Below, piece by piece: positions 4,084-20,827 of a stretch of 32,000 nucleotides of DNA (the first letter of the stretch is position 1; the number at the start of each line of letters is the position of its first letter). Position numbers and translations under genes: made by a program. Where the stretch lies: the NCBI RefSeq assembly GCF_009936275.1, contig NZ_AP019797.1, forward strand, positions 1,811,890 through 1,843,889, read 5' to 3'. The notes under the pieces were generated by a model. That model searched no databases, had not been told where the DNA came from, and worked only from the letters and a program-made list of their open reading frames with translations. The DNA is from Rhodothermus marinus. Lineage in GTDB: Bacteria; Bacteroidota; Rhodothermia; Rhodothermales; Rhodothermaceae.

Positions 4084-4797
4084 ATGACTGTTTTACCGGA
4101 TTCTTACAGGCAGACGCTTCGCCGTCTGGGAAGGGCCCTGCGGGCGCTGGTCTATCCATGGCACTGTCTGCACTGCGGCGCACGGGCCACGCACCCGACG
4201 CTTCCGCTCTGCACAGACTGTCTGGCCACGCTTCGTCGCGTGCCGCCCGGCGAGCCGCTTCGTCGCCTGCACCGGTTGCCGGAGGCCATCGGCTGCTTCC
4301 GCGCCGCCTACAGCCTGTGGTACGAAACCTCGGAGGGGCCCTTTCGCCCGCTGCACCATGCTCTGAAGTACGGCAACCGGCCGGTCTATGCGCAGCGGCT
4401 GGGACGGCTGCTGGGAGAGACATTCCGAGATGAGCTGCAGGAGATTGATGTAATCGTGCCCGTCCCGCTGCACCGCCGCCGTTTCCTGGAACGCGGCTAC
4501 AACCAGAGCGCCTGGCTGGCCCGAGGCGTCGGCGAAGTGCTGGGACGCTCGGTCGCCCCCGAACTGCTGGTGCGCGTGCGCGCCACGCGGAGCCAGACCC
4601 ACCTGGGTCGGGAAGCACGTCGCGCCAACGTGGCCCGCGCCTTTGCGGCGCCTTACCCGGAGCGTGTGGCCGGACGCCACGTGCTGCTGGTGGACGATCT
4701 GCTCACCACCGGCGCCACGGCCGCCTGGGCCGCCCAGGCCCTGCACGAAGCCCACGCTTCTGGCGTCACGCTGATCACGCTGGGCCTGGCGGTATGA
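4084..4797 (+). CDS. comF: ComF-family protein (phosphoribosyltransferase-like, ComFC type)
   Basis: N-terminal Cys pairs 'CLHC...CTDC' and a C-terminal PRTase motif 'VLLVDDLLTTGATA'. The start is uncertain: ATG 4084 was chosen because ATG 3997 would overlap the divergent gene. Confidence 0.8.
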   Translation: MTVLPDSYRQTLRRLGRALRALVYPWHCLHCGARATHPTLPLCTDCLATLRRVPPGEPLRRLHRLPEAIGCFRAAYSLWYETSEGPFRPLHHALKYGNRPVYAQRLGRLLGETFRDELQEIDVIVPVPLHRRRFLERGYNQSAWLARGVGEVLGRSVAPELLVRVRATRSQTHLGREARRANVARAFAAPYPERVAGRHVLLVDDLLTTGATAAWAAQALHEAHASGVTLITLGLAV

Positions 4798-4884
4798 AGC
4801 AATTGCAAATTGCCGGAATGTGTGATTGCAGATTCACCGACGAATGACGGCACACCCCATGTACTGGACATGGCTCGCGGGCAC

Positions 4885-4917
4885 AAAAAGCGGACACAGT
4901 GGCCGTCTCTGTGTGCT
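4885..4917 (-). terminator. Weak candidate terminator about 115 nt downstream of hsdR
   Basis: On the minus strand: GCACACAG-AGACGGCCA-CTGTGTCCGC followed by TTTTT. The stem is only 6 bp plus 2 bp across a bulge. Confidence 0.3.
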
Positions 4918-5031
4918 GGAAATGCCGTCAGCTGTCCGATAGGGGTGCCCCAAGGTGTGCGCTCGTGCTTTCAGCCCGGGGTATAAAGCGTGGTCATGGG
5001 ATACCACGCACATGCACCATGATGCCCGTGA

Positions 5032-8000
5032 TCAAGCAACCCACTCGCCACACAACACCTCCGTTTGACTCAAAACCAGCTCCACAGCCTGTTCCTGTTT
5101 GTCGGGCGGATAGCCATATTTGCGCAGGATACGCTTGACGAGTACGCGCAACTGGGCGCGGGCGCTCTCACGTCTATTCCAATCTACCGTTACACTTTTG
5201 CGTACGCTTTCGACCAGTACCCGGGCGATCTCCTTCAAGGTTTCGTCTCCGAGCACTTCTACAGCGCTTTCATTTACCGCCAGCGCATCATAAAACGCCA
5301 CTTCATCTTCGGACAGGCCGAGCTCTTCACCACGGCGCGTGGCTTCTCGTACCTGCCTGGCAATGGCGATCAGTTCTTCAATCACCTGCGCGGCTTCGAT
5401 GGCGCGATTGTGATACTTGTTCAGGGCCCGCTGGAGCAATTCCGAGAACGCCCGCGACTGCACCACGTTTTTGCGCAGGCGAACCTGGATCTCATCCTGA
5501 AGGAGTTTTTTCAGCGTCTCTACGGCCAGATTTTTCTGCGGCAAGCTGCGCACTTCTTCAAGAAACTCATCGGAAAGAATGGAAATGTCGGGCTTTTCCA
5601 ATCCCGCCGCCGCGAAGATATCCACTACCTCGCAGCCCGAGATCGCCCGGGAAACGAGCTGCCGAACCGCCGCTTCAACCTCCTCCGGGGCGCGCTCCGC
5701 CGAACTCACCGTAGCCTTGATCAGAGCCGCCCGAATCTCCTGAAATAGACCCACCTCGTCGCGAATAGCGAGGGCCTCCTCGTGCGGCACCGCCAAAGCA
5801 AACGCCTTGGACAGCGCCGCCACGGCCTGCAGATAGCGCTTCTTACCGTCCTCCCGCCCCAGAATGAAGTCCATGGCCTCGGCAATGCCCTGCAGGCGCT
5901 CATCGGGAGCAGCAGCCAGCAGGCGCCAATAGTCGAATCCGTGCAGGATGCCGCAGACGACCTCGTACTTCTCCTTCATCACTGCCACGGCTTCGGCCTG
6001 ATCGATGGCCGCCTTGCCCCGACCGCCGCTTTCAGCGTACACGGCAAGCGCCTTCTTGAGGGAATCGGCAATGCCCAGGTAGTCCACCACCAGCCCGCCG
6101 GGCTTGTCGCGAAAGACGCGGTTCACGCGGGCGATGGCCTGCATCAGATTGTGGCCGCTCATCGGCTTGTCGATGTACATCGTGTGCAGGGGCGGCGCAT
6201 CGAAGCCGGTGAGCCACATATCGCGCACAATGACCAGTTCCAGTTCATCGTTTGGGTCTTTGAAACGTCGGGCGAGAAAGTCCCGGCGTTCTTTGTTGCG
6301 GATGTGCGGCTGCCAATCGAGCGGATCCGAGGCAGAGCCGGTCATCACCACCTTGATCTTCCCCCTGGCGTCGTCGTCACTGTGCCACTCAGGACGCAGG
6401 GCCGTAATGGCCTTGTACATCTCCACGCAGATCCGACGGCTCATGCAGACGATCATGCCCTTGCCCAGCAGGGCTTCCCGCCGCCGTTCCCAATGCTGCA
6501 CGAGGTCCTCGGCCACAAGCCGGATGCGCTTCTCCGCTCCCACCAGAGCTTCCAGCGATGCCCATTTCGACTTCAAGCGTTCCCGGCGGACGACATCCTC
6601 TTCGGCTTCGGTAATCTCCTCGATTTCCTCATCGAGCCGCGGTTTCTCCGCCTCATCCAGTTCGATCTTCGCCAACCGGCTTTCGTAGTAGATCGGCACT
6701 GTAGCGCCGTCTTCCACTGCGCGTTGGATATCGTAGATGGAAATGTAATCGCCGAAGACTGCACGGGTGTTTTTGTCTTCCTTCTCGATGGGCGTCCCGG
6801 TAAAGCCAATGAACGATGCGTTGGGAAGCGCATCGCGCATGTGGCGGGCGAAACCGTCAATGAAGTCGTATTGACTGCGGTGGGCTTCGTCGGCGATGAC
6901 AACGATGTTGCTCCGCTCCGACAACGTCGGGTAGCGTTCCCCCCTGGTTTCGGGGAAGAATTTCTGGATGGTGGTGAAAATCACGCCGCCAGAGGCAACT
7001 TGGAGGAGTTCTTTCAGGTGCGCCCGGCTTTCGGCTTGCACGGGGGTTTGGCGCAAGATCTGACGGTTGGCGCTGAAGGTGGCAAAAAGCTGATTGTCCA
7101 AATCGTTGCGGTCGGTTAGCACCACGATGGTGGGGTTTTGCATGGCGGGGTGCCGGATGATTTTGCTGGCGTAGAAGACCATGGAAAGGCTTTTGCCCGA
7201 GCCCTGGGTATGCCAGATGACCCCGACGCGCCGGTCGCCGAACTTCGGGCGATATTCGGCTTTTGGTTCCCGGACCGCAAACGGATCAGCGGCCGCTGCT
7301 TCTTGAAAGCGAGCGTATAGCGTGCTGGCATCCGCTTCAATGCCACAGGCGACGAGTGTGGAAGCGAGCGCCTGATTGACGGCATGGTACTGGTGATAGC
7401 CGGCGGCCTTCTTGGCGATGCCTGCTGTGCCCTTGTCCACCTGTTCGAAGGTGATGAAGTTGAGCACGTAGTCGAGAAAGCGCCGACGCTCGAACATACC
7501 ACGGATCAGGGTCTTCATCCCCGGCTGCACCATACCTTCGCTTTGCTTGTCGTTTCCCGGCTCGCGGTAGAGGTCGGTCCCGTCGATGGTGCGCCAGGGC
7601 ATGAATCGGTCCCAACCGGACGTCAGCGTCCCGAAGCGGGCCTGCATGCCGTCGGAAATGACGAGGATCTCGTTGTAGGTAAAGAGCGAAGGAATCTCCT
7701 GCTTGTAGGTCTGCAACTGATTGAAGGCCGCCCGTAGCGTGGCCTGCACCGTGCCCGGGTCTTTCAACTCGATCACGACCAGCGGCAGACCGTTGACGAA
7801 GAGCACAATATCCGGCCGCCGCTCGTGCTTGTTCTCGATGACCGTGAACTGGTTGACTGCCAGCCAGTCGTTGTTGTCCAGGTTTTCGAGGTCGAGCAGC
7901 CACACCTTGCCGTGCTTCTCCCCTTCCGGTCCCATCCAGGAAACATCCACGCCGTCGGTGAGCATCTGATGGAAGCGGCGGTTGTTCTCGATGAGCGCCG

Positions 8001-8244
8001 GACTCTCGGGCGTGAGCACCTGGCGCAGGGCCTCTTCGATGGCCACGGCGGGCCTGTCCGGATTGATGCGCTCCAGCGCCTCCCGCAACCGCCCCTTGAG
8101 CACCACATCGCCGTAGGTTTCACGTTCCGGCCGTAAGCTCTCCGGGGCGAGGTCGGGGCCGTATGCGGTCTGCCAGCCCAGCGCCTGGAGCTCGTCCAGG
8201 GCCATTTGTTCAACGTCCTCTTCCACAAGATTACCCATGGCCAT
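5032..8244 (-). CDS. hsdR: Type I restriction enzyme R subunit
   Basis: N-terminal PD-(D/E)xK module '[19 protein letters not shown]'. SF2 motif I 'TQGSGKS' (GSGKS at 7189-7203), motif II 'DEAH' (6880-6891), and 'FTGTP'. C-terminal '[30 protein letters not shown]' (DUF3387-type tail). The start is set at ATG 8244 ([24 protein letters not shown], a typical HsdR N-terminus); the ORF-track start at 8322 is an upstream extension. Confidence 0.95.
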
Positions 8245-9385
8245 TCCCGTTTTCGATTTCACGGCGCAACCAATCCAGCAGCGGCTCAATCGCCTCCTCG
8301 TCCAGGCCATCGATAGCGGCAATCTGGATCAGGCGTTTCAACGTCACACGCACCGCCGCCCGTTTTGACTCGCGCCTGCTCCAATCCACGACTGCGAGGT
8401 CTTCCATTTCGTCAAGCAGCGTGTTGGCGAAACGGTGCACCTGCTCTTTCTGGTCGCCCCTGCCACCCAGCAGCCGATGGACGACGAACTCGTAAAGCAG
8501 ATGTACCTTCTCCCGAAACCGCCCCTGATAATCGTCAAGGAGCTGTTGTCTTACTGGCTCGGCGACGGGTTCCGACGGTACCGCTGGCTCTTCTTCTGAA
8601 ACAAATTCGCCCGATTCCCCTGCTTCCTCCTCGACCAATTCCGTTCTTTCCTCCTCCTCGGCTGGCATTGCCCCTTGTAACACATCAAGCACGCTTATGT
8701 AGGCCTGCCGGTCCAGGTGATACAGCAATTCGCTGGGCGGCACGCGCAGTTCGATGGCTTCCTCAGGCGTCTGCGTGCCTGCCTGAACCCGCACCACCAG
8801 CACGCCAGCCTCCTCATCTACCTCAGCCTCCAACGCACAGCCTGCATCGATGCGCTCGTTGAGATGCCGAAACCGCTCTGGCGGCTCTCTGGTGGTCCGA
8901 AGATTGGGCTCCCTGCCGTCGTAGGCGCTCAGAATGAGCGCAATGACCGAGTCGGCCGAGAGCAAATATACCCTCATATGCCGGTTCGCAATCGTGTCGA
9001 GAAACCCATCCCTGCCATGCGCGACGCTGCCGTCCTGATTGCGCAGCTCGTTCAGCCCCTCGACCAGTTTATTGTGCCCCGAGATCACCTTGCCCAGTGG
9101 TCCGACGCCGCGCTGGTTGCGCAATCCCAGGGCGTCCAATACGCAGGAAAGCAACTCCGTTGTCGTCGGCGTGGAGGAAGCCGGTCCCTCTCTCCCCAGC
9201 TCGTTGAGCACCGTCCAGCAGACGCACTCCAGGAAGGACTTGATCAACTCGATGACGCTGCTCCCTTCCCCCTCCCAGGCGCGGACGAGCTCCCGATAGT
9301 GTTGTTGAAGATTGGCGGCATCCGGCCAGCGCTCGACAGCGGCAGGATAGGCCGGGGCGATGTCGTCGAGACGGTTGGCACTCAT
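8231..9385 (-). CDS. 384-aa protein: Abi_C/HEPN-like N-terminal domain + poly-Glu linker + HsdR-C-terminus-like tail
   Basis: '[19 protein letters not shown] ... [17 protein letters not shown] ... [19 protein letters not shown]' follows the Abi_C (abortive infection C-terminus) pattern as I recall it. The C-terminal '[21 protein letters not shown]' matches the HsdR tail. Start ATG 9385 lies 2 nt after the PIN-gene stop (TAG 9388-9390). The 3' end overlaps the hsdR start by 14 nt. Confidence 0.75.
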
Positions 9386-9387
9386 GT

Positions 9388-9876
9388 CTATCTCTCCAGA
9401 ACGAATCGAGCTCGCTCGTGCCGCAACATTTCGAAGGGTGTCATCACCTTGATGCCCAGTCCCACACACACGTTCGGAATCTTGACCTTATTCCGCGTGT
9501 CGGCAGGCTTCTCATGCGTTACAACGACAAACCCACCGGCCAGCGCATGGGCGATAAGCCAGTAGTCCGCCACCTGGAAAAAAGCGTTCTTGGCAGCCGG
9601 GGTGTATCCGTTGCTGTTCACCCATTCGCTCACCGCACCCATCGCTTCGAGAACAGTCGGATCTGGTTTCAAGAAGAAGCCATCCCGCTGAGACGACACC
9701 CAAACCGCCAGTTCATCGTCGCCCGCCTCGAGTTCGTCCTTGACCTTCTCAATGCTGAACACCTTGCCGGCCTGGTTGCTTTCGACCAGCCAGTCCCAGA
9801 AGGCTGGGCAGAAGTCCATGCCGTAATGCAGGTTCTTGGCCGCTATGAAGACGTTGGCATCCAGCAGGTATCTCAT
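9388..9876 (-). CDS. DUF4411-type PIN-like nuclease (putative toxin)
   Basis: 162 aa. 'MRYLLDANVFIAAKNLHYGMDFCPAFWDWL' and 'KIPNVCVGLGIKVMTPFEML' match the DUF4411 pattern I recall. The start overlaps the ImmA stop (ATGA at 9873-9876). Confidence 0.75.
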   Translation of the reverse strand: MRYLLDANVFIAAKNLHYGMDFCPAFWDWLVESNQAGKVFSIEKVKDELEAGDDELAVWVSSQRDGFFLKPDPTVLEAMGAVSEWVNSNGYTPAAKNAFFQVADYWLIAHALAGGFVVVTHEKPADTRNKVKIPNVCVGLGIKVMTPFEMLRHERARFVLER

Positions 9877-11024
9877 GCCGGAATCTCCAGACGTTGCGCC
9901 AGCTCATAAAAGGTCCGGCTTTTTCGCACGCCGAGAAGGCGAAACGCCTCGGTAAAGGGCGTTTGTCCCTCCAACGCGCTCACGATCACCGCCCTGGCGA
10001 ATCGTTTGCCCACATGAGCGCCCAGGGTGTTGTAAAAATCCCCGCCCTTTCCTCCGGGCGAAAGCTGCTTCAACCGCTGTAACTCTTGTTGCCATGCGCT
10101 GTCCAGTGTTTCCCAATTGATCCACCCGGCATCGAACAGACGGCGCAGGATCACCAGGGTGCTGACCTTGAAGCGCCGCGCCAGCCGCTCCAGCGTCTCG
10201 GGTAAAGGTTCGCCTGCCACCAGGTTCGCTCGCACGGCTTCAAGCGGAGCAAGGAATTCCGCCGCCACCGCATTGCACCAGCGCTCGGTCCGCTCGTCGG
10301 GAAGAACGCGCGCGTCGCTATCGCTTACGCCAGATTGTCCCAACCAGAGGTGCGCCAGTTCATGGGCCAGGGTGAACATCTGTCCCGCCTTGCTGTCCCT
10401 GCCATTGATGAACACCAGCGGGGCCAGGTCGTCGGCCAGCGCGAATCCGCGAAACTCGGAGACATCGAGCGGGCGGTGGGTATTGCTGCCGACAATGCCG
10501 CTGACCATCACCAGCACCCCGGCATCTTCGGCCAAGCCGATGAACTGTCGCAGCGCTTCAGTCCATGTCGTCATTCGGGAACGGGCTTCTATATCGAACC
10601 CGAGCTGTTCGCGCATCCGAGCGGCCACCTCCGCCGGGGCATCCTGAAGCGTCGCCGAGCCCACAAAGGCAACCGGCGGTTCGCCATATAGCCGGGCAAA
10701 CTCCCGGTACCAGGCCTGCCGCTGCTGACAGATGTAGATCGTTTCCAGCAGGTCGGCGCTGGGGGAGCTATGGCGTGCCTTCGACGTGGTGCGAAAATCG
10801 GGGATCGGCAATGTCTCTTCCGGCGGTTCGGCCAGAAAGAAATAACCGATAGGGGTATGGGTGGCGCGGGCGAAGTCCTCGAGCTGCCTGAGCGTGGGTT
10901 GCCCCTGCCCTTCTAACCAGTCTTCGAGCTTCTTGAAACGACGAGACAACTCCTCCGGCATGCGGCCAGAGCGCCGCATGGCCCAATACAGGAGTTCGGG
11001 TTTAACAGGCACCCGCAAGGTCAT
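9873..11024 (-). CDS. XRE-type HTH + ImmA/IrrE (COG2856, DUF955/M78) zinc metallopeptidase
   Basis: 383 aa. The N-terminal 'LEDWLEGQGQPTLRQLEDFARATHTPIGYFFL' is HTH-like. HEXXH motif 'HELAH' at 10350-10364 within 'FTLAHELAHLWLG'. Confidence 0.85.
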   Translation of the reverse strand: MTLRVPVKPELLYWAMRRSGRMPEELSRRFKKLEDWLEGQGQPTLRQLEDFARATHTPIGYFFLAEPPEETLPIPDFRTTSKARHSSPSADLLETIYICQQRQAWYREFARLYGEPPVAFVGSATLQDAPAEVAARMREQLGFDIEARSRMTTWTEALRQFIGLAEDAGVLVMVSGIVGSNTHRPLDVSEFRGFALADDLAPLVFINGRDSKAGQMFTLAHELAHLWLGQSGVSDSDARVLPDERTERWCNAVAAEFLAPLEAVRANLVAGEPLPETLERLARRFKVSTLVILRRLFDAGWINWETLDSAWQQELQRLKQLSPGGKGGDFYNTLGAHVGKRFARAVIVSALEGQTPFTEAFRLLGVRKSRTFYELAQRLEIPA

Positions 11025-11053
11025 ACCGCATCCTCCTGAATCTTCTCTTCATC
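11021..11053 (-). repeat. Remnant copy of the hsdS 3' end (..EEKIQEDAV-stop overlapping the immA ATG)
   Basis: 30 of 33 nt are identical to 12628-12660 (tcataccgcatcctcc[t/a]gaatcttctc..). Both copies end in the same ATGA stop/start overlap. Confidence 0.8.
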
Positions 11054-11141
11054 TGGCACGATGTCGGAGCCGTACCTCACGGCCCAGCATATGGACTCGA
11101 GCCAGACACAGACAGCGGCTTTGGTGATAGATTCAGCGAAA

Positions 11142-12059
11142 TCAGCCCTTATCATTGATCCGTCTCCTGTTCCCTGCCTTAAAACGCTCGGGCTGCCCTT
11201 TGACAAACTCCAGCTCATACCGGCGACGGTCAAGAAGCTCCAGAAACGCCAGCTCGTGGCCTTCGGAGACCTTGAGTTTACCGTCTAATTCTTCGACTTC
11301 GACACCATTCTGCTCGCAGAGAGCCTTGAGCAAGGATTTGTCGACATTCTTGGTTAGCTCTTGACTCCGGATCGAGGCAAGGTAGCGGGCTGCCCTCGTA
11401 TGCTTTTTGGCATATTCCTCGATAGGGGCTAGTTCTACGAATGGAAGATCACTTTGGATCGCTTTGATGTTCTTCGGCACCGCATCCAGAATGGCCTGCT
11501 GGAGCTTGCCTGCGAACTCAAATCCACTGGGCCGCAGGATGTAGACGTTCTTCGAGTCAGCGAGAAGGTCGAAGTCAATATCCAGCTTGAACACACGGTC
11601 TTCAATCAGCTTGAGTGAGTCCGAGACTAATCGAATCAGGCGGCTCTTCAAAATCCCCTTGAACTGCGTAGCTCGCCGAAGGGCGGTCAAACGCCGATGC
11701 TTGTTATCCGTGAGCTGGGCGAAGTAACAGAATATGTTCGAAGGATCATTCAACGCACCGCTATTGGTGGGCAGATTGGCAGCTTCGTGCAACGTTTTTA
11801 CTGCGGCTGCCATCTCGTGGTCTAGTGGCAGATAGAGGCACTCTCTACTCTCGTATTTCTCGGACGGCTCGTACTCCCTCGGCCCGTCCTCGCAATTGTT
11901 CAATGCATTCCACGTTGCCTGCGCCATCTCGCGAAGCGCTCTCTGCACGCCCACATCTACTGGTACAACGACGAACGTTTGGTGGTCGCCGGCATCAATG
12001 CCCACGCCAAATGTGGTCACGGTCACGTTCTCGAAATCAAAGTCTATGGTTAACCTCAT
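11142..12059 (-). CDS. 305-aa cytoplasmic protein, KwaB-like (DUF4868-type) candidate
   Basis: Size and position (immediately after, and ATGA-overlapping, a 4-TM gene) fit Kiwa KwaB. 'FKLDIDFDLLADSKNVYILRPSGFEF' resembles the DUF4868 core as I remember it. Not verified by any search. Confidence 0.5.
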   Translation of the reverse strand: MRLTIDFDFENVTVTTFGVGIDAGDHQTFVVVPVDVGVQRALREMAQATWNALNNCEDGPREYEPSEKYESRECLYLPLDHEMAAAVKTLHEAANLPTNSGALNDPSNIFCYFAQLTDNKHRRLTALRRATQFKGILKSRLIRLVSDSLKLIEDRVFKLDIDFDLLADSKNVYILRPSGFEFAGKLQQAILDAVPKNIKAIQSDLPFVELAPIEEYAKKHTRAARYLASIRSQELTKNVDKSLLKALCEQNGVEVEELDGKLKVSEGHELAFLELLDRRRYELEFVKGQPERFKAGNRRRINDKG

Positions 12060-12631
12060 GTCTCAGGCTCTAAATAAACTGTATCGCTCAAGCGATAGGC
12101 TATAAGCTTTTCACCAGAAGCGAGACTCACGCGGCGCGTGATTAGAACCAAGGGCACCCTGCCGGTAAGTGGATTGCCGTCATCCGGCGGATAGACCGTA
12201 AACACTCGGTAGCCCCGTGCAGCAAAGACCAGATTCATGTAGTGCAGGTTTAGGTGCCAGAATAGGAATACAACAAACGCCAAAGCGGCAACAGTAGCCC
12301 CAAGGTCACGCCAGTTCCCAAGATCTTCCGAGTAGAACGGCAGCAGCATCGCGAACAGGTAAACGAGAATGTGGTCGCGATGGTCGTCAGAAGTGCCAAC
12401 AATCAGCTCGCGTTTGTCGTTTTCCTTCTTCGCTGTTGCAATGCGCAGCCATAGAAAGGCGTTAGGAACAACTACCATCAGCGCACAACACCCGACGAAC
12501 CAAGGATCGGGGAGAAGACTGTTTCCACGGATAGCCCATAGGATAAAAAGCGGCGAGATGCTGCTGAGCACCATCAGGAGTCGCGCCGCCTTGAGTCCCT
12601 CGCGATGAACGGTAACAGGACGCATGTTCAT
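12056..12631 (-). CDS. 191-aa four-TM membrane protein, KwaA-like candidate
   Basis: Four hydrophobic segments: 'LLMVLSSISPLFILWAI', 'FVGCCALMVVVPNAFLWL', 'ILVYLFAMLLPFY', 'ATVAALAFVVFLFWHL'. A soluble tail of about 55 aa follows. The start overlaps the hsdS stop (ATGA at 12628-12631). Confidence 0.5.
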   Translation of the reverse strand: MNMRPVTVHREGLKAARLLMVLSSISPLFILWAIRGNSLLPDPWFVGCCALMVVVPNAFLWLRIATAKKENDKRELIVGTSDDHRDHILVYLFAMLLPFYSEDLGNWRDLGATVAALAFVVFLFWHLNLHYMNLVFAARGYRVFTVYPPDDGNPLTGRVPLVLITRRVSLASGEKLIAYRLSDTVYLEPET

Positions 12632-13896
12632 ACCGCATCCTCCAGAATCTTCTCCACATCCTTCACCCGCAACTCGCCAGAGATCAGTTTGGGCAGCAGC
12701 GTGTCGCGCAGGGCAGCAAGGGTGCGGGATTCCACTACATAATGATCCTGCAAAGCTCTCATCTTTGATACAAATTCAGAAAGTTTAGAAGCTAAGTTGC
12801 TTCCTGGCCAGAGAATTGGTAAGCACTCAATATCGCTATTTGCTACAAAAGGCTGTGCTGCCCCTTTTTTGATTACGTCAATGTTTGCATTGCGTAGCGC
12901 AAGATATAACCATTCTCCAAGTTTGCGTTCATGAACTCTAACCAAAGAAGCATTGTTGTTTATCCAAGCTTCGCCGATATGTCGGAAAAACTGCCCGCAA
13001 TATGCTCCCACTCTTCCAACAGTTATGACAAAACCAGTTGCGTTGCTAATAGTTGTGTAGCCCATAATACCCGCACCTCCAAAAACGGGCACGGGACCAT
13101 GATCTTTGATGTACTTTTTGGAAAGCTGCTGGCCACCTTTTAGAGCAGCAAACTCCCTGACCTGTTTTATCTCCCACCCCTCCGGAATCGGCCCCAGTTC
13201 CGACTCCACGAAGCGGGCGGGGAAGAGGCGTAGGATGTCTTCGGGCAGGCCAAGGGCGTCGGGGTTGTCGCGGTAGTGGGCGGCGCGTTTGGCGAACTTT
13301 TCGGGGATGGGGTTTCCGGCGCGCAGGGCGTTGACCACCACCGGGTCGAAGTCCACGAACCAGGACTTGAAGAGCGCCTGGGCCATGGCCTCCAGGGTCT
13401 CGTTCATCCGCCGGTTCAGCTCGATCTTGTCATCCAAGGTGCCGAGGATGTGGGCAATGGCGCGTTGTTCGGGAAGGGGTAAATAAGGCCTCTTAAATCT
13501 TTCTACATGTTCCCATTTCGCCCGCGGCATTCGAGTACCTTCGGAACCTTTGCTGGCAAAGTCGATGAAATCGTGAGCAGCCATCCAATAGAAAAGATAA
13601 TTCTGATCAAAACCCTCTTTTGCACGCACTACCCAGATATCCGTAGAGCAAATGCCATCAAATGGTGCACGTATTACCTTACGGAAATATGGACGCAGTT
13701 TTCCAAAAAGTATGTCGCCTTTTCTAAATCGGAATTTTGCACTACTGACATCGGAAGCATATCCCCAACCAGCAAGTCGTAATGTGCCCTGCTCAATGTG
13801 TTCAAGACCAATATAGGGCATTTTTCCAGCTTCTTCAGGCTGGACAACATCCCGCACAAGTTGGGCCACATCACGAAATGCGACCTCGCTTCCCAT
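12628..13896 (-). CDS. hsdS: Type I R-M specificity subunit with two dissimilar target-recognition domains
   Basis: 422 aa. 'PYIGLEHIEQGTL...FRKGDILFGKLRPYFRKVIRAPFDGICSTDIWVV' is a classic Methylase_S pattern. Central conserved region 'LPEQRAIAHILGTLDDKIELNRRMNETLEAMAQALFKSWFVDFDPV'. Distal 'LAALRDTLLPKLISGELRV'. Confidence 0.92.
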   Translation of the reverse strand: MGSEVAFRDVAQLVRDVVQPEEAGKMPYIGLEHIEQGTLRLAGWGYASDVSSAKFRFRKGDILFGKLRPYFRKVIRAPFDGICSTDIWVVRAKEGFDQNYLFYWMAAHDFIDFASKGSEGTRMPRAKWEHVERFKRPYLPLPEQRAIAHILGTLDDKIELNRRMNETLEAMAQALFKSWFVDFDPVVVNALRAGNPIPEKFAKRAAHYRDNPDALGLPEDILRLFPARFVESELGPIPEGWEIKQVREFAALKGGQQLSKKYIKDHGPVPVFGGAGIMGYTTISNATGFVITVGRVGAYCGQFFRHIGEAWINNNASLVRVHERKLGEWLYLALRNANIDVIKKGAAQPFVANSDIECLPILWPGSNLASKLSEFVSKMRALQDHYVVESRTLAALRDTLLPKLISGELRVKDVEKILEDAV

Positions 13897-13907
13897 AGAT
13901 CACCCCT

Positions 13908-15962
13908 TCATGGATTCAAGAAGGCCCGATTTATCTCTTCAAACAGATTACTGGCTATCCTGAAAACATCAGTGGGGATTTTTTCTGAACCATCCATAAT
14001 CCAGTCCCGTAATACCGCAGCGGGTCGCCACTTCTCGAACCGACCAAGTCCCTTGTACTCAAAGAGCGCCTTCACTTTGTTTACAACGCCATCGGTTGTC
14101 TCTATGTCCTCGTCAAACGTTAGCTGGTCGATATTGTAGGCTTCCCTTACTGCTTCCAGGTAAACCTCTTCAGGAAAAATATCTTCGAGCTCTGCATATG
14201 GTTTTTCTGGCAAAAAATCCCCAATGAATAGGCAACGTCCTGTTTCACCTGCAAATAAGTTTTCGGTGAGCTTCTTGCCTTCCTTGCGACCTGGTTCGTC
14301 ACCATCCAAGAGGGCTACAACCTCGACGTCATGGCCAATAAGCATACTAGCCAGGGGAAATAATTTGCTCAAACCAGCTGATGGAACAATAACCACATCA
14401 TCCCGAAGGGCTGACTCACCGCGCTGTCGAAGCAACTGGTCAAACGCCTTGAGAATCCAGTAGTCGGTAATCCCTTCAACGATTAGTTGGCGCTTGCTGA
14501 TAAAAAGAGATTGAACAAGCTGATACCCTAAGCCTGCCTGAAGTGGGAAAAGAGCATCTTTGTCACGAGGCCAAATGTCTTCTGATACTTTGGTCGTTCC
14601 ATCTTCTGCCTCATAGACAATACGGACTCGTTCCAAGTGGTCTGCATCTATCATAAAAGGGGAGTGGGTTGTGTACATTGTCTGATTTTCTTGGGAAAGC
14701 TTCTCAAGGAACTTGACCACCTTTGCTTGGGCTGTCCCATGCATGTGCAAGCCGGGCTCGTCCAGAAGGAGAATTGCCTTTTGATGTGCCCCTTTCGCTT
14801 CAACAAGGAAAACGGTAAAGAATGAGAAGAAATACTGCATACCCAAGCTGCGCTGGTCCAGTTCGATCTCGCTTGGATCAAGGTCATCAGAAACCCAAAT
14901 ACGGAAAAAGTCCCCGTCTGCTTGATAGCGGAACTTGTGGCGGCGCTGCTCCCACCAGTCTTGGAATTTGGTAGTCATGGCATTTGACGCTGAAGATAGT
15001 TTTATAGCGCGCTCATCAACGTAACGGCGGATCTTTTCAATAGTCTGGGAATCCATTTGCTGTCCTGGCTGGTGCTTCTTCCCAAGTGCTGCTAATTCTT
15101 CCACATCGAGACCCACGTGCTCAAATAAGCATCGCGTTGTGCGAACGCGGGGCGCGGTAGGATTTTGGTTGAGCTGCTGCACAAAAGTTGGGAGATGAAC
15201 GGCGCTGTCAATTACGTCGTAGCGGTCAAAGTAGATGAACTTTGGAAGATTGTTTTCAACCCATTGCTTGGCTTGCGCCAGTTCATAACCAAAGGAAGCG
15301 CGCTCAAGCAAGCTCTGGGCTTTTTTGCTTATATCCTGGAGAAGCTTTTTTTGCCATTGCTCGTTTGATTGCGTAGCGATGGTGTGTACGAGTCTCTCAA
15401 CTTCGGCTTTCGGTACAACTTCATCCGGCCTTGTTGAGGATTGTTGATTTTCAAGCTGATAGAGGGTCTGAAGGAGGGTATTCTTAATTGCACCGAGAGC
15501 ATCGCCCTTACCTTCGGGGGCGGTCAGATCACTCAGCGTTTGCCGAATCTCTCCAATGGCAGTTTTGAATTCAGTACGAGTCAAGACAGAAGTAGGAGGA
15601 GCGGGTTCAAATTCTACTGACAATTCCCAAGAGTAATGGCGCGTACATGTCACCTGCTTGACGTCCGCAAGTGCAGAGCATATTTCGGCAAGCTTCTTGC
15701 GATCGATGTCGTCAAGCTCAAACCTGCCGCTTGCTACAGGCCAATCTTGCTTTTGGAATTCGTCGGTATAACGCCGTCGTGGAAATTCTTTAAGTCCATC
15801 GTATCTTTCACCGTCGGATGGGTTGAGCTTGGAGAGGCCTCGAAACAACGCTGACTTACCTGCTTCATTTTTTCCCACGAAGCAGGTGAGATCACGGACA
15901 CTAACCCATCCTGTATCTTGAATCTTCTTGTAGTTTTGGACGCGAAAAGCTACAAGTTTCAT
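13908..15962 (-). CDS. OLD-family nuclease (ABC-type ATPase + C-terminal TOPRIM)
   Basis: 684 aa. Walker A 'GKNEAGKS' (15852-15875), ABC-signature-like 'SLGMQ', Walker B 'ILLLDEPG', 'TTHSP'. TOPRIM Glu in 'LIVEGITD' (E at 14475-14477) and 'DGD' (14298-14306). The start overlaps the hsdM stop (ATGA at 15959-15962). Confidence 0.8.
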
Positions 15963-17524
15963 AATTCATCCTCCTTCGTATAGAATCCAAGCACCTCCAG
16001 GTTTTTCTTGATTTCCGCCTCCAGCCGGCGGGCTTCCTCGAACTGCTCATAGAGCGTGGCGGTCAGTTCGGCCATCTTCTCTTCAAAGGGAATGCCGTCG
16101 TCCTCTCGCTCCTCCACGCCCACGTAGCGTCCCGGCGTGAGCACGTAGTCGCGCTGGCGGATATCCTCGATGGTGGCCGACTTCCACCAGCCGGGTTTGT
16201 CCTGGTAACCCTCGCCCTTCTTCCAGGCGTGGTACACGTCTGCGATCTGGCGGATTTCCTCCTGGGTCAGCTCCCGGTGCACACGGTCCACCAGGCGGCC
16301 CATGCGCCGGGCGTCGATGAAGAGGGTTTCGCCGGTGCGGTCGCGATAGCCTCGCTTCGGGTCGGCCTTCTTATTGCGGGTGAGGAACCAGAGCGAGACC
16401 GGAATCTGCGTGGTGTAGAAGAGCTGTCCCGGCAGGGCGACGATGCAATCCACCAGGTCGTCCTCGATGATGCCCTTGCGAATCTCGAATTCGGCCTTCG
16501 TGGATGTAGAGAGCGAGCCGTTGGCCATCACGAACCCGGCAATGCCGTTGGGGGCCAGGTGATAGATGAAGTGCTGGATCCAGGCGTAGTTGGCGTTGCT
16601 CGCAGGGGGTACGCCATATTTCCAGCGCGGGTCGTCCGTGAGCCGCTCCCCGCCCCAGTCGCTCATGTTGAAGGGGGGATTGGCCAGGATGTAGTCGGCC
16701 TTCAGGTCCTTGTGCAGGTCGTTGTGGAAGGTGTCGGCATGGTGCGGGCCCAGGTCGGCGTCGATGCGGCGGATGGCCAGGTTCATCTTGCAGAGCCGCC
16801 AGGTGGTGGGGTTCGACTCCTGGCCATAGATGGCGATGTCGCCGAGCTTCCCCCCGTGGGCTTCCACGAACTTCTCCGACTGCACGAACATGCCACCCGA
16901 GCCGCAACAGGGGTCGTACACGCGCCCGCGGTACGGCTCGATCATCTCAACCAGAAGTTGCACGACGCACTGGGGCGTGTAGTACTCGCCGCCGCGCTTG
17001 CCCTCCTTCTCGGCAAATTTGCCCAGAAAATATTCGTACACCCGCCCAAGCGGGTCTCGGACGCCGTATTCCTGCGCCTTCAGGTTGATATCGCCGACAA
17101 GCTTCACCAGCTCACCCAGGCGCACCTTGTCCAACGTCGGGCGGGCGTAGTCCTTGGGCAACACCCCCTTGAGCGACGGGTTCTCCCGCTCGATGGCCGC
17201 CATCGCCTCGTCGATGACCTGGCCGATGGTGGGCTGTGGCGCAGCCGCCTGAATTTTCTCCCAGCGCGCCTCGGGCGGCACCCAGAAGACGTTGGCGGCC
17301 AGGTACTCGTCGCGATCCTCGGGGTCGGTGAACTCGGTGTCCTGCTTGGCCTTGAGCTCCTGGTACTTTTCCTCGAAGGCGTCGGAAATGTATTTGAGGA
17401 AAATCAGCCCCAGCACCACGTGCTTGTACTCGGCGGCGTCCATATGGCCGCGTAACTTGTCGGCCATCTCCCAGAGCTTGTTCTCAAAGCCCAGATTGGC
17501 GCCGTTTGTTTTATTCGTATCCAT
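15959..17524 (-). CDS. hsdM: Type I R-M N6-adenine DNA methyltransferase subunit
   Basis: 521 aa. HsdM_N pattern '[34 protein letters not shown]', AdoMet motif '[12 protein letters not shown]', catalytic 'NPPF' (16670-16681). Confidence 0.95.
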
Positions 17525-17759
17525 AAGCTATTTGATCGATGCAGAAGGTACGGCTGTGACAGGATGAAAAAAATGCATTCTTTTAACACTTCCAGATTGG
17601 TCAGGATTCCATCCCGGGCAAAAACAGTCGCTGAGCACCTGTTCATCGTGATAAAGTATGCTATCGGATTCAGTATACATCTCCTGGGTACTTTTCTATG
17701 CTTTGCTGCATGATTTTAAATTGCAAAATTTATAAGATTTATAAGCCCGATCAGTTTCT
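17525..17759 (-). promoter_or_regulatory. AT-rich leader/promoter region of the hsd operon and right island boundary
   Basis: Conspicuously AT-rich 235 nt between the ABC-ATPase stop and the hsdM ATG. It contains the tandem 9-mer atttataag x2 (17728-17745) and, on the minus strand, TATAAATTTTGCAATTTAAAAT. No transcription start can be assigned from sequence alone. Confidence 0.35.
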
Positions 17760-18386
17760 TCACCGAAACCGCCGCAAATCCACCTGCTGCATGCAGGCGG
17801 CCGCTTCGTCGGCGTCGTTGGTGGCCACTACCACCAGTCGGCCTTTCGCGCGGGCTTCTTCAAGCAATGCTTCAACCAGCCGGCGGCCGGCCTCGTCCAG
17901 GTTCGAGCGCGGCTCGTCCAGGAGCCAGAGCGGCGGATCGGCCAGCAGCGCGGCGGCCAGCCGGAGCCGCTGGCGCATGCCCGAGGAGAAAATCGCCACG
18001 GGCTCGTCGGCAAACGCCCGGAGCTGCACCCGTTCCAGCCAGCTTTCCACACGCCGGCGTCCGTCAGAAAGGCCCCGGGCCCGGGCGATAAATGTCAGGT
18101 TCTCCCGCGCGGTGAAAGCGTCGTAGAGCTGCAGGTAGGGTGCAGCCAGTCCCACGTAGAAGGGACGATCGGCAGGCTCGATCGGGCGGCCATTGACCTG
18201 GAGCCGCACCTCGCCCTCCGAGGGACGCAGCACGCCCGCCAGTATGCGCAAAAGCGTCGACTTGCCCGAGCCGTTCGGGCCCGTCACGGCCAGCGTCTCG
18301 CCGGCCGCGATCGTGAACGAAAGCCCCGCAAACAGACGCCGGTAACCGAAGCGCTTGCCGAGCGCGATCACTTCCAGTCGGTCCAT
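17760..18386 (-). CDS. ABC transporter ATP-binding protein (CcmA-like size and motifs)
   Basis: Walker A 'GPNGSGKST', signature 'SSGMRQR', Walker B 'LWLLDEP'. ATG 18386 (MDRLEVIALGKRF) is preferred over the ORF-track start at 18455, which lies only 14 nt from the divergent polB start. No permease gene is adjacent. Confidence 0.8.
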   Translation of the reverse strand: MDRLEVIALGKRFGYRRLFAGLSFTIAAGETLAVTGPNGSGKSTLLRILAGVLRPSEGEVRLQVNGRPIEPADRPFYVGLAAPYLQLYDAFTARENLTFIARARGLSDGRRRVESWLERVQLRAFADEPVAIFSSGMRQRLRLAAALLADPPLWLLDEPRSNLDEAGRRLVEALLEEARAKGRLVVVATNDADEAAACMQQVDLRRFR

Positions 18387-18469
18387 GCCTGCAAGATAAG
18401 CAACCGGACCGCTCCGAAACGCATCGCCGCTCCCGCGGTATATCCTTTTGCTCAAGTTTTACTTCAGCC

Positions 18470-20827
18470 GTGGCGGAGACGACGCACCTGTACGACGACG
18501 TCGCGCTGTTCGGCCGGGATCCGTCGCCGGGTCTGCTGGACGTGCAGCCGCTGCTGGACGGCGACGCCGACACGCCGGCCCGCGTGCGCCTTTACTGGCG
18601 CAGCACGGACAGTACGCTGTGCGTCGAAGAGCAGCCGTTCTATCCGTTCTTCCTGCTGGCCGACATTCGGTTGCTCCGGGGCTACCCGCGGCGGCGTTTT
18701 CGCTTTCGCCCGCTGGCGGGAAGCGAGCACTTCCGCTATCTGGTCGTCTTCGAAAGCTGGACCGCCTACCGCGAAGCGCTCCGGCACATCGAGCAGGCGG
18801 CCGCCGGTGCCGAGCGCCCGCCCGTCTATCAGATCAACACCCCGGCCCAGCAGTACCTGATGCAGTCGGGCCGCACCTGCTTCAAAGGCATGACGCTCGA
18901 CGACCTGCACCGCCTCCAGCTCGACATCGAGGTCTACACCGAATCGGGTTTCCCGAACGCGGAGCGTCCCGAAGATCAGATCGTGCTCATCGCGTTGCAC
19001 GACAACCGCGGCTGGCATCGCGTGCTGGACGTACGCGAAGCAGGCTCCGAAGCGGCCCTGCTGCGTCAGTTTGTGGACGTGCTGCGCGAGCGGGACCCCG
19101 ATGTGCTGGAAGGCTACAACCTGCTGGCTTTCGACCTGCCCTATCTGCAGCGGCGTTGCCAGCGCTACGACATTCCCCTGCAACTGGGCCGCGACGGCAG
19201 CGAGCCCCGCACGTTTCCGGCCAGCATTCGCTTTGCCGAGCGCACGATCGACTACACGGCCTTCGAGATCGCCGGCCGGCACGTGATCGACGTGTATTTT
19301 CAGGTGCTGGCCTTCGACGTGTTCAAGCGGGATCTTCCCGACTACACGCTGAAGACGGTCGCCCGCTATTTCGGCCTTTCGACGCGCGATCGTACCTACA
19401 TCGCCGGCACCGAGCTTTCCCGCACCTGGAGCGAAGATCCCGATCGCGTGCGCGCTTACGTGCTCGACGACGCCATCGAAACGGAGCGGCTGGCCCGCAT
19501 GCTCTCGGGCTCGGCCTTCTACCTGACGCAAATGGTGCCCATGCCCTACGGACAGGTGGCGCGCACGGGACCCGCTGCCAAGATCGAAGCGCTCATGGTG
19601 CGCGAGTACCTGCGGCGTCGCCACAGCATCCCCTGCCCCCAATGGGGCAGCCAGGCGCTGGGCGGCTACACGGACGTCTTCGTGACCGGCGTGGTCGGCC
19701 CCATCGTCTATGCCGACGTCGAAAGCCTCTACCCGTCCATCATGCTCACCTACGGCATCCAGCCGCGCACCGATCGGCTGGGGCTGTTTCAGCAGCTGTT
19801 GCGTCGGCTGACCGAGCTGCGCCTGGAAACCAAGCGCCGGATGCGTGAAGCCGAGTCCGAAGCGCTGCGCCGCGAACTCGACGCCCGGCAGAACTCCTAC
19901 AAGATCCTGATCAATTCCTTCTACGGCATGCTGGGCTTTTCGCTGGCGGCGTTCAACGACTTCGAGGCGGCCGATCGCGTGGCGGCCACCGGTCAGGAGG
20001 TGTTGCGCCGGCTCATCCAGGCCATCCAGCAGGCCGGCGGACAGGTCGTCGAAGTGGATACCGACGGCGTGCTCTTCGTGCCCCCGCCGGACGTCCGGGA
20101 CGAAGCGGCCGAACGCGCCTTCGTCGAGCAGCTCGGCGAGGCCCTTCCATCCGGCATCCGCGTGAGCTACGAGGGCCGTTTCAAAAAAATGCTTTCCTAC
20201 AAAAAGAAAAACTACGCGCTGCTGGGCTACGACGGCAGCCTGAAATTCAAAGGCTCCTCGCTGATTTCCCGCTCCGTCGAGCGCTTCGGCCGCCAGTTCG
20301 TGCGCGAGGCCATTGCGCTGCTGCTGGAAGAAGATATTCAGGGACTGCACGAACTCTACCTGCGCTACCGCGCCCGCATCCTGCAGCACGACTGGGAAAG
20401 CGTCCACGACTTCGCCCGCACCGAGACGCTGAAAGACACGCTGGACAACTACCTGGCCGATGTGGCGGCCGGACGGCGTCCCCGCGCGGCCGCCTACGAA
20501 CTGGCCCTTCGCCTGCGCGAAGCCGGACGTCCTGTACGCAAGGGAGACCGCATCACCTACTACATCACGGGCACGCACCCCAACGTGGCCGCCTACGAAA
20601 ACTGCCGCCTGGCCGAGGAATGGGATCCGGCCAATCCGGACGAAAACGCGGCGTACTACCTGCGGCGTCTGGACGAATTTGCCCGCAAGTTCGAGCCCTT
20701 CTTCACCCCGGCCGACTTCCGGCGCATTTTTTCCCCCGACGACCTGTTCGGCTTCTCGGCCGAGGGCATTCGTCCGATCCGCCGGGTACGCGCGCCTGAA
20801 GAAGTGTTTTCATCCACCCCGTTTTGA
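18470..20827 (+). CDS. polB: Family B DNA polymerase (Pol II-like)
   Basis: 785 aa, GTG start. Exo I 'LDIEV', Exo II 'YNLLAFDLPYL', Exo III 'YVLDDAIE', Pol A 'DVESLYPSIM', Pol B 'KILINSFYG', Pol C 'VDTDGV'. Confidence 0.92.
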   Translation: MAETTHLYDDVALFGRDPSPGLLDVQPLLDGDADTPARVRLYWRSTDSTLCVEEQPFYPFFLLADIRLLRGYPRRRFRFRPLAGSEHFRYLVVFESWTAYREALRHIEQAAAGAERPPVYQINTPAQQYLMQSGRTCFKGMTLDDLHRLQLDIEVYTESGFPNAERPEDQIVLIALHDNRGWHRVLDVREAGSEAALLRQFVDVLRERDPDVLEGYNLLAFDLPYLQRRCQRYDIPLQLGRDGSEPRTFPASIRFAERTIDYTAFEIAGRHVIDVYFQVLAFDVFKRDLPDYTLKTVARYFGLSTRDRTYIAGTELSRTWSEDPDRVRAYVLDDAIETERLARMLSGSAFYLTQMVPMPYGQVARTGPAAKIEALMVREYLRRRHSIPCPQWGSQALGGYTDVFVTGVVGPIVYADVESLYPSIMLTYGIQPRTDRLGLFQQLLRRLTELRLETKRRMREAESEALRRELDARQNSYKILINSFYGMLGFSLAAFNDFEAADRVAATGQEVLRRLIQAIQQAGGQVVEVDTDGVLFVPPPDVRDEAAERAFVEQLGEALPSGIRVSYEGRFKKMLSYKKKNYALLGYDGSLKFKGSSLISRSVERFGRQFVREAIALLLEEDIQGLHELYLRYRARILQHDWESVHDFARTETLKDTLDNYLADVAAGRRPRAAAYELALRLREAGRPVRKGDRITYYITGTHPNVAAYENCRLAEEWDPANPDENAAYYLRRLDEFARKFEPFFTPADFRRIFSPDDLFGFSAEGIRPIRRVRAPEEVFSSTPF

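Follow-up and report, generated by a model that had tools for sequence, protein, structure and literature searches.

Defense modules nested in a Type I restriction-modification operon of Rhodothermus marinus and their variation between strains

Introduction

Genes of other defense systems nested within restriction-modification (R-M) operons have been described in several forms, and they are the background to the locus considered here, a Type I operon of Rhodothermus marinus that runs from hsdM to hsdR on the minus strand at positions 5032-17524 of a 32,000-nt stretch of contig NZ_AP019797.1 (positions 1,811,890 to 1,843,889; this whole stretch is called the window). In Payne et al. 2024 (bioRxiv 10.1101/2024.01.29.577857), 17,432 non-redundant genes were found embedded in BREX, DISARM, and Type I systems, 96.7% of embedded genes were co-oriented with the host system (BREX, DISARM, Type I, Hma), and genomic-sink, co-regulation, and back-up explanations were weighed. 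Experimental cases of a second defense system in a Type I operon are TgvAB on VPI-2 of Vibrio cholerae and DarTG2 with RptR on an island of enteropathogenic Escherichia coli (EPEC), and the EPEC Type I island is driven by one upstream promoter. AbiJ HEPN proteins that lack N-terminal sensor domains have also been reported to occur preferentially in R-M operons (Anantharaman et al. 2013, PMC3710099). The first-pass annotation of the window had named single passengers such as PrrC as the precedent; PrrC stands as one, but the precedent is far wider, embedding having been catalogued by Payne et al. 2024.

The window locus shares with the genes in that catalogue the nesting of defense genes among hsd genes on one strand and the proposal of co-regulation or back-up, and alternative cassettes found here match its candidate families PDC-S06, PDC-S05, and PDC-S14. 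The embedding of defense modules in this Type I operon is therefore correctly described, but already established as a phenomenon. The locus differs in having four nested modules at three junctions, with a history resolved by a within-species allelic series; no such six-state series was found in the accessible literature on embedded defense genes. HsdS-tail remnants at cassette borders are not described in the accessible part of Payne et al. 2024, and no description of them as bridging open reading frames (ORFs) was found in the accessible literature on embedded systems. TgvAB and DarTG2 are single embedded systems, and the EPEC case has a dedicated repressor, whereas no regulator gene was seen upstream of hsdM at the window locus. 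Integron cassette arrays offer a functional analogy, with a co-oriented stack of exchangeable genes, expression from one end, and a short border repeat, but the window locus lacks an integrase and any attC-like structure, its repeat derives from hsdS coding sequence, and exchange is apparently homologous. With moderate confidence, we favor the reading that a Type I operon was turned into a stack of anti-phage modules by successive gain of cassettes at its internal junctions.

Gene order and junctions

Nine minus-strand ORFs from hsdM to hsdR at 5032-17524 were re-derived from the sequence, with the order, coordinates, and junctions given in the first-pass annotation; profile searches confirmed the gene identities and upgraded a pair described as Kiwa-like to genuine Kiwa. 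The distance from the hsdM start to the hsdR start, put earlier at about 9 kb, is 9.3 kb. The array holds ten ORFs once a 44-codon bridging ORF is counted. The proteins of the window correspond to BBM69715-BBM69725, with BBM727xx duplicates, by exact sequence match. The features are as follows.

4818..17766, no strand: strain-variable insert between the comF and ccmA 3' ends (empty-site comparison)
17525..17759, minus: AT-rich leader in the ccmA-hsdM interval, candidate operon promoter region
15959..17524, minus: hsdM, Type I methyltransferase, 521 aa (N6_Mtase, HsdM_N)
13908..15962, minus: OLD-family ABC ATPase with a borderline TOPRIM match, 684 aa, class-1-like, without partner helicase
12628..13896, minus: hsdS, specificity subunit, 422 aa (Methylase_S in two stretches)
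12735..15986, minus: low-GC block, OLD plus the hsdS recognition domains (third-codon-position GC, blastn breakpoints)
12056..12631, minus: kwaA, Kiwa membrane component, 191 aa (PADLOC KwaA)
11142..12059, minus: kwaB, Kiwa effector (DUF4868), 305 aa (PADLOC KwaB, Pfam KwaB)
11021..11155, minus: 44-codon bridging ORF, HsdS C-terminus remnant, covering the 117-nt interval
12621..12660, no strand: hsdS-tail repeat copy 1, the true hsdS 3' end, serving kwaA
11014..11053, no strand: hsdS-tail repeat copy 2, GGAGGA plus ATGA overlap, now serving immA
9873..11024, minus: immA/irrE-type M78 metallopeptidase, 383 aa, RmrA-like antitoxin or sensor
9388..9876, minus: DUF4411 PIN-like nuclease, 162 aa, predicted toxin partner of ImmA
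8231..9385, minus: AbiC, an Abi_C (AbiJ-type HEPN) protein with an HsdR-like C-terminal tail, 384 aa
5032..8244, minus: hsdR, Type I restriction/translocase subunit, 1070 aa (1068 aa from ATG 8238)

Four junctions are ATGA overlaps, namely hsdM/OLD (15959-15962), hsdS/kwaA (12628-12631), kwaA/kwaB (12056-12059), and immA/DUF4411 (9873-9876). Spacers of 11 nt and 2 nt separate OLD from hsdS and DUF4411 from AbiC, and AbiC overlaps hsdR by 14 nt (8231-8244), or by 8 nt if the in-frame ATG at 8238, the hsdR start picked by public gene callers, is used. The kwaB/immA interval measures 117 nt (11025-11141). Equally tight packing is found in every alternative allele, where the cassettes are co-oriented with overlaps or spacers of at most 11 nt, and a chance arrangement of nine co-oriented genes with spacers of at most 11 nt is excluded. 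The genes between the hsd genes are, as first proposed, defense-type modules that share one orientation and whose stops and starts overlap, and they are nested between hsd components, all on one strand and with zero pseudogenes, the features that define an embedded system in Payne et al. 2024. The PADLOC run and the syntenic comparison that had been suggested as checks bear this out: PADLOC matched Old, KwaA, KwaB, RmrA, MTase_I, and Specificity_I, and the alleles show that Kiwa, OLD, PDC-S06/orf276, and AbiP2 vary between strains.

Profile matches indicate that the R-M genes are one intact Type I system, as HsdM matches N6_Mtase (2.7e-111), HsdM_N (2.3e-28), and PADLOC MTase_I (1e-232), HsdS matches Methylase_S in two stretches and PADLOC Specificity_I (5e-80), and HsdR matches HSDR_N (8e-57), SWI2_SNF2 (3e-81), a T1R_D3-like domain, T1RH-like_C (5e-137), and TIGR00348 (4e-187). 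Compared with other strains, the ratio of nonsynonymous to synonymous substitution rates (dN/dS) is 0.11 for hsdM, 0.10 for immA, 0.27 for AbiC, and 0.075 for hsdR. Over hsdM, immA, DUF4411, AbiC, and hsdR it ranges from 0.04 to 0.27, comparable to ccmA and polB, which indicates purifying selection on the long-resident genes of the locus.

The leader at 17525..17759 has a GC content of 39% vs about 65% in its flanks. Its sequence is kept in all hsd-bearing alleles (L082, L086, L093), and the AbiP2 allele diverges about 40 nt past ccmA. Strong Shine-Dalgarno sequences (GGAGGA, AAGGAGGA) precede most of the internal genes, but nothing of this kind stands before the hsdM ATG (17525-17545), and hsdM, the first gene in the array, may initiate translation differently. 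The sequence TATATTTG at 8963-8970 on the minus strand is the sole TAnnTTTG (Bacteroidota-type -7 motif) on that strand in the 32-kb window.

Allelic series at the ccmA-comF site

The same chromosomal site was fetched via the ccmA alleles of other R. marinus strains, together with metagenomic relatives. In R. marinus this site varies between strains: at least six allelic states can be told apart, one of them empty, and PADLOC names the alternative cassettes.

Allele i (L089, L090/91): empty, ccmA and comF 3' ends adjacent
Allele ii (L093, L094): hsdM-hsdS-immA-DUF4411-AbiC-hsdR
Allele iii (L086, L088): allele ii plus kwaA-kwaB between hsdS and immA
Allele iv (window): allele iii plus OLD between hsdM and hsdS
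Allele v (L082, L085, L087, L092; SG0.5JP17-172 type): hsdM-hsdS-PDC-S06-(79-aa HsdS fragment)-orf276-(44-aa HsdS fragment)-immA-DUF4411-AbiC-hsdR
Allele vi (L081; DSM 4252): ccmA-AbiP2 reverse transcriptase-immA-DUF4411-truncated AbiC-comF

The empty sites (L089, L090/L091) join window position 4797/4817 to 17760/17767. At the CP172416 empty site (L089 10627/10628) the stop codons of ccmA and comF abut with zero spacer, and at a metagenomic one (L090 10621-10886) they are separated by a 266-nt spacer unrelated to the window. The hsd-less state of DSM 4252 (allele vi) is derived: a deletion from AbiC into hsdR has fused window positions 8889 and 5187, and 155 nt from the hsdR 3' end survive. 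No tRNA genes, integrase, or flanking direct repeat were found for the insert at 4818-17766, and an integrative element was rejected on these grounds. The ABC ATPase beside hsdM was also considered as an island gene and rejected, being the native ccmA that is present at the empty site. Judged from these comparisons, the insert behaves as a hotspot flanked by core genes and exchanged by homologous recombination.

HsdS-tail remnants at cassette borders

The 117-nt interval between kwaB and immA had been taken as a gap and proposed as the place to look for an internal promoter. It is no empty spacer, being covered by the ORF at 11021-11155, and no obvious promoter either. Public assemblies annotate this bridging ORF as a gene. 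It is preceded by a Shine-Dalgarno sequence of its own, AGGAGA, and shares 14 nt with the end of kwaB and an ATGA with the start of immA. Its C-terminus reads EEKIQEDAV* vs VEKILEDAV* in hsdS, and the final 33 nt of hsdS (...GAGAAGATTCTGGAGGATGCGGTATGA) are repeated just before the immA ATG with 30/33 matches. The repeat, termed D1, is the top direct repeat of the region (40 nt, 88% identity, 11014-11053 vs 12621-12660). The 44-aa homologue in L082 ends in ...LRDTLLPKLISGELRVPDVEKILEDAV*, the full HsdS C-terminal motif, and the 79-aa ORF of allele v is a second HsdS fragment, with PADLOC Specificity_I at its C-terminus (E 4e-8). L082 thus has three copies of the HsdS tail, each overlapping the next start codon. 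In L093, L094, and L106 an intact hsdS ends with the same sequence directly on immA, and the homology breakpoints of the Kiwa, orf276, and AbiP2 alleles coincide at 11058-11060, the start of the remnant. As judged by this homology, the 117-nt interval is a degenerate remnant of the HsdS C-terminus. The conserved part is evidently the translation-initiation region of the downstream gene, because GGAGGA lies 7 nt before the immA ATG in the retained tail, and the remainder has degenerated in the window lineage.

The 33-nt repeat was also considered as a target-site duplication of Kiwa, which was rejected: Kiwa-free alleles carry a longer remnant, and intact hsdS ends this way in L093 and L094. 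Searches with an HsdS-tail profile located further cases outside these alleles. A 36-residue remnant lies directly before AbiC, after a 1178-aa gene, in L108/L109; in L125-127 DarT-DarG and two unannotated ORFs come first, then another remnant, then immA; and weaker remnants lie before immA in L006, L016, L017, and L028, none of which has a full-length hsdS directly upstream. Downstream of the remnant in L108 come AbiC, a RhuM/PDC-S05 gene, and hsdR. The 1178-aa gene (L108 4370-7906), between hsdS and the tail remnant and ATGA-coupled to hsdS, has no Pfam or PADLOC match, and the 276-aa gene between two HsdS-tail fragments (L082 16265-17095) has no Pfam, PADLOC, or NCBIfam match.

The Kiwa cassette and the OLD block

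KwaA matches its PADLOC model at 2.4e-95 over 183/186 positions and carries Pfam KwaA in public gene calls, and KwaB matches at 1.1e-132 (Pfam KwaB 7e-10). Because both match over almost their full length, the pair is assigned by these profiles to Kiwa proper, beyond Kiwa-like. Over the Kiwa patch (11161-12560) the window and L086 differ at 8 of 1,400 nt, whereas adjoining segments differ by 4-25%, and the patch is also nearly identical in L088. Synonymous divergence (dS) is about 0.01 for kwaA and kwaB vs 0.12-0.38 for their neighbors. The low dS and the near-identical patch therefore indicate that the cassette has spread recently over diverged backgrounds. In the wider operon family, Kiwa also occupies other junctions, before AbiC (L101), after AbiC (L146), or beside immA (L009, L077). 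A second identical patch of 1.2 kb between the window and L086 covers the AbiC 3' end and the hsdR 5' end (7561-8760), and the middle of hsdR (6161-7160) diverges by 15-25%, so recombination patches appear to cut through hsdR.

The OLD protein matches PADLOC Old (4e-26) and AAA_15 (1e-24); its OLD-like_TOPRIM match (1.2e-4) reaches 22.9 bits, just under the 23.2 cut-off, and PF20469 is carried by many OLD homologues in precomputed annotation. Its gene is neighbored by hsdM and hsdS, with no adjacent helicase (Gabija), retron, or AriB partner, has a GC content of 48%, and is missing from the sister alleles L086, L088, and L082. In all four contexts examined, the gene next to hsdM on its downstream side is an OLD homologue with 74-77% identity; an identified hsdS comes next in three, and in the fourth the gene after OLD is not hsdS. 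GC content at third codon positions (GC3) is 0.48-0.64 in OLD, hsdS, kwaA, and kwaB and 0.71-0.85 in hsdM, immA, DUF4411, AbiC, and hsdR, with 0.48-0.52 in the block at 12735-15986, which by its blastn breakpoints is found only in the window lineage. The block is bordered by the last ~8 hsdM codons on one side, homology of hsdM to other alleles stopping at 15987, ~8 codons before the stop, and by the conserved hsdS tail on the other. Within hsdS only the central segment 13166-13479 and the tail 12628-12740 can be aligned to other alleles, and both target-recognition domains are unlike those of sister alleles. Since the hsdM-OLD-hsdS order recurs in other loci, OLD and the hsdS recognition domains were probably brought in as a single unit from another Type I locus. 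Another loaded Type I operon, L172 5139-16052 (GCA_054030035.1), reads hsdM-OLD-hsdS-433 aa (no assigned family)-Ymh HEPN-two small ORFs-PDC-S14/DUF4357-hsdR.

The immA-DUF4411 pair

ImmA matches Peptidase_M78 (9e-17) and PADLOC RmrA (5e-16). Its partner matches the DUF4411 profile (3e-57) and no PADLOC model, and so belongs to no described RmrT family. DUF4411 with HTH-DUF955 has been classed as a predicted toxin-antitoxin system with DUF4411 as the toxin, and relatives of the ImmA-like protein have been described as fusions of a helix-turn-helix (HTH) domain and a peptidase (PMC5499597); Rosmer-type ImmA antitoxins pair with PIN toxins (PMC10440598, PMC5499597). The window pair shares with the RosmerTA and the three-component HTH-DUF955 plus PIN systems of these studies an M78 peptidase gene upstream of a small toxin gene, here DUF4411, but its ImmA has no detected HTH and DUF4411 falls outside the PADLOC RmrT models. 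No HTH or other domain was found in ImmA residues 1-180 with Pfam (E <= 0.01) or NCBIfam (E <= 0.001), and a divergent HTH may be present.

Relatives of the pair were collected from 78 genome loci of many phyla, and DUF4411 follows immA in most of them. HsdS is directly upstream in 20 of 72 loci and HsdR directly downstream in 12 of 56, and other neighbors are often R-M or defense genes (DarT, Macro, Fic, UvrD-type helicases). By this synteny, immA-DUF4411 is a mobile pair with a strong yet non-exclusive preference for Type I operons. A patch of DUF4411 (9561-9760) is 27% divergent between the window and L086 (amino acid identity 86%), and the gene is 99% identical to that of the L082 allele, so at least two alleles of this toxin gene are found in the species.

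AbiC, a HEPN protein with an HsdR-like tail

AbiC matches Abi_C (7e-10) and, at 9e-5 and 22.4 bits vs a Pfam threshold of 26.8, T1RH-like_C. Its family has more than 200 members with conserved length and architecture. Synteny was sampled in 80 metagenomic loci, with relatives down to 31% identity. Among loci with enough sequence, 62 of 65 have hsdS upstream on the strand of AbiC (46 of them directly adjacent) and 46 of 54 have hsdR downstream, and AbiC identity is tracked by the identities of hsdM and hsdR. The hsdS-AbiC-hsdR synteny therefore argues that AbiC is a conserved accessory of a Type I subfamily and no free passenger, and that the ancestral unit would be hsdM-hsdS-AbiC-hsdR. Six genes of the array had initially been treated as passengers. 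The term lumps unlike things: Kiwa is a recent cassette, immA-DUF4411 a mobile pair, AbiC a conserved accessory, and the OLD clade has a constant place after hsdM. No matches to AbiC were found by tblastn among 72,556 plasmids, a profile search of Protein Data Bank (PDB) sequences returned nothing meaningful, and NCBIfam added no names for ImmA, DUF4411, AbiC, or KwaB.

R115 and H123 are invariant in 67 AbiC homologues, within RNQxGSVAHG, and form the HEPN catalytic pair with a spacing of Rx7H, not Rx4-6H. The AlphaFold model (mean predicted local distance difference test score 78) shows a helical domain at the N-terminus and a helical bundle at the C-terminus (291-378); between them come a small beta domain and then a disordered acidic linker (240-279). 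AbiC thus comprises HEPN, beta domain, acidic linker, and HsdR-like tail, with no ATPase domain. In the tail, which is kept in homologues to ~31% identity, D334 is invariant and W335 and R338 are near-invariant. By hhalign, AbiC 311-360 aligns to HsdR 998-1047 with 92% probability (E 6.6e-7) and a shared motif, vDW..Res.RA..Rv..KR. Over 17 non-redundant loci, AbiC and HsdR tails of the same locus are closer than those of different loci (BLOSUM sum 52.8 vs 46.7, permutation p = 2e-4), a small effect that would fit a common binding partner as well as gene conversion. The accessible literature on embedded and HEPN systems was found to hold no description of the strict hsdS-AbiC-hsdR synteny together with the homology to the HsdR tail.

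Proposed assembly of the operon and alternative explanations

The series can be arranged as a stepwise build-up from a four-gene unit, hsdM-hsdS-AbiC-hsdR. The immA-DUF4411 pair would have been placed between hsdS and AbiC, ATGA-coupled to the hsdS stop. An incoming hsdS with a downstream cassette would then have replaced most of the resident hsdS, the cassette being Kiwa in the window and PDC-S06, the 276-aa gene, or the AbiP2 reverse transcriptase in other strains. This step would have left the final 35-130 nt of the old hsdS, with the Shine-Dalgarno sequence and stop/start overlap required by immA. In the window lineage, the lower-GC block of OLD plus hsdS would finally have replaced the sequence that lay between the end of hsdM and the hsdS tail. 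Exchange probably occurred by ordinary homologous recombination at the hsdM 3' end, at the hsdS center and tail, and in the flanking core genes, with no dedicated recombinase. A single message starting in the AT-rich region ahead of hsdM would carry the ten ORFs, with their translation coupled. In the resulting layers, R-M would cut unmodified DNA, and OLD, Kiwa, and ImmA-PIN would respond to other infection cues; AbiC would be tied to the R-M complex by its C-terminal homologue of the HsdR tail and act as a PrrC-like back-up RNase.

Several points weigh against this picture. The insertion order is a parsimony argument. Scans for sigma-70 promoters and intrinsic terminators (4500-18500) gave counts equal to those of shuffled controls; the consensus used was of E. 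coli type and may be unsuited to Rhodothermota. The TAnnTTTG motif at 8970 lies within AbiC, 726 nt ahead of the hsdR start, and could be an internal hsdR promoter. DSM 4252 retains immA-DUF4411 without hsd genes, so the pair can do without R-M genes. The last two points would also fit the explanation that Payne et al. 2024 themselves raise, a genomic sink, in which the hsd operon is a tolerated landing place for unrelated modules with their own internal promoters and the close packing is a matter of genome compaction, not of co-regulation or synergy. Kiwa, OLD, and AbiP2 are known as stand-alone systems, and immA-DUF4411 adjoins hsdS or hsdR in just a minority of loci. Yet every cassette in every allele is co-oriented and closely packed, the AbiC and OLD clades are found essentially only in an hsd context, and the HsdS-tail remnants keep the ribosome-binding site and overlap while the rest is degenerate, which argues for selection on coupled expression; the sink explanation is accordingly regarded as unlikely. 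Far less probable still is that R-M is inactive and the locus a decaying scaffold retained solely for its embedded genes, even though DSM 4252 has lost hsdM, hsdS, and hsdR and hsdM is fragmented in one related contig (L174). In the window, each hsd ORF is of full length and encodes its whole set of domains, purifying selection acts on these genes (dN/dS 0.075-0.11), and the hsdS recognition domains are under active exchange.

Within the stepwise build-up by cassette gain, the role of AbiC can be considered separately. As a tentative best guess, which we hold with some reserve, AbiC would be a latent HEPN RNase tethered to the M2S core, because of its tail homology, the co-variation of the tails, and the precedent of PrrC. 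Like AbiC, PrrC of the EcoprrI locus (Type IC) is a HEPN RNase encoded inside an hsd operon and near-exclusively there; in the scheme proposed for it, the R-M complex keeps PrrC inactive and inhibition of the complex sets it free, and the same is postulated for AbiC by analogy. PrrC differs as a fusion of ABC-ATPase and HEPN, whereas AbiC, known from sequence alone, has an AbiJ-type HEPN domain at its N-terminus, an HsdR-like tail, and no ATPase. In EcoR124I, the C-terminal domain of HsdR is required for assembly with the methyltransferase core. A similar role of the HsdR tail at the window locus is an assumption from other Type I families, and it counts against tethering, as do the small basis of the docking idea (~50 aligned residues), the modest co-variation (about one residue in 50, a signal that gene conversion or lineage composition could also yield), and a Foldseek search of the AlphaFold model against the PDB that gave nothing at E <= 0.001. 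The proteins of Anantharaman et al. 2013 (PMC3710099) share the Abi_C/AbiJ HEPN domain in R-M operons, but the HsdR-tail-like fusion and strict hsdS-AbiC-hsdR synteny are not described there. The short tail, the lack of a structural match, and the sub-threshold T1RH-like_C score would suit a HEPN toxin that brings about abortive infection on its own and is physically unconnected to R-M, its tail being a relic of a partial hsdR duplication. This alternative seems rather doubtful, though it deserves serious attention, as the tail is conserved down to ~31% identity with D334 invariant, the gene is almost never found outside hsdS...hsdR, the tails of AbiC and HsdR co-vary within loci, and dN/dS of AbiC is 0.27.

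Concluding remarks

A broader reading joins these threads, in which Type I operons of this subfamily are cassette platforms by way of an hsdS-tail adapter and AbiC is a docked fourth subunit that mimics the HsdR tail. Both parts holding together is possible, and on present evidence a minority expectation. If this were true, the final 35-130 nt of hsdS would be a portable adapter that remains after each insertion, couples translation of the downstream gene, and gives homology for later cassette swaps, and AbiC would fire as an RNase once restriction is neutralized.

Two sub-findings appear worth experiment. One is the HsdS tail as a possible adapter, and the other is the HEPN accessory protein, a widespread protein whose limitation to Type I loci and HsdR-like tail make it a candidate R-M guardian. 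The 276-aa gene of L082 and the 1178-aa gene of L108 are candidate new defense genes. For a phenomenon that has so far been mainly statistical, the ccmA-comF site of R. marinus provides, within one species, a natural series that begins with an empty site and reaches a stack of ten ORFs. It makes co-transcription of embedded systems, their mutual back-up, and the entry of cassettes without breaking downstream expression testable in a culturable thermophile.

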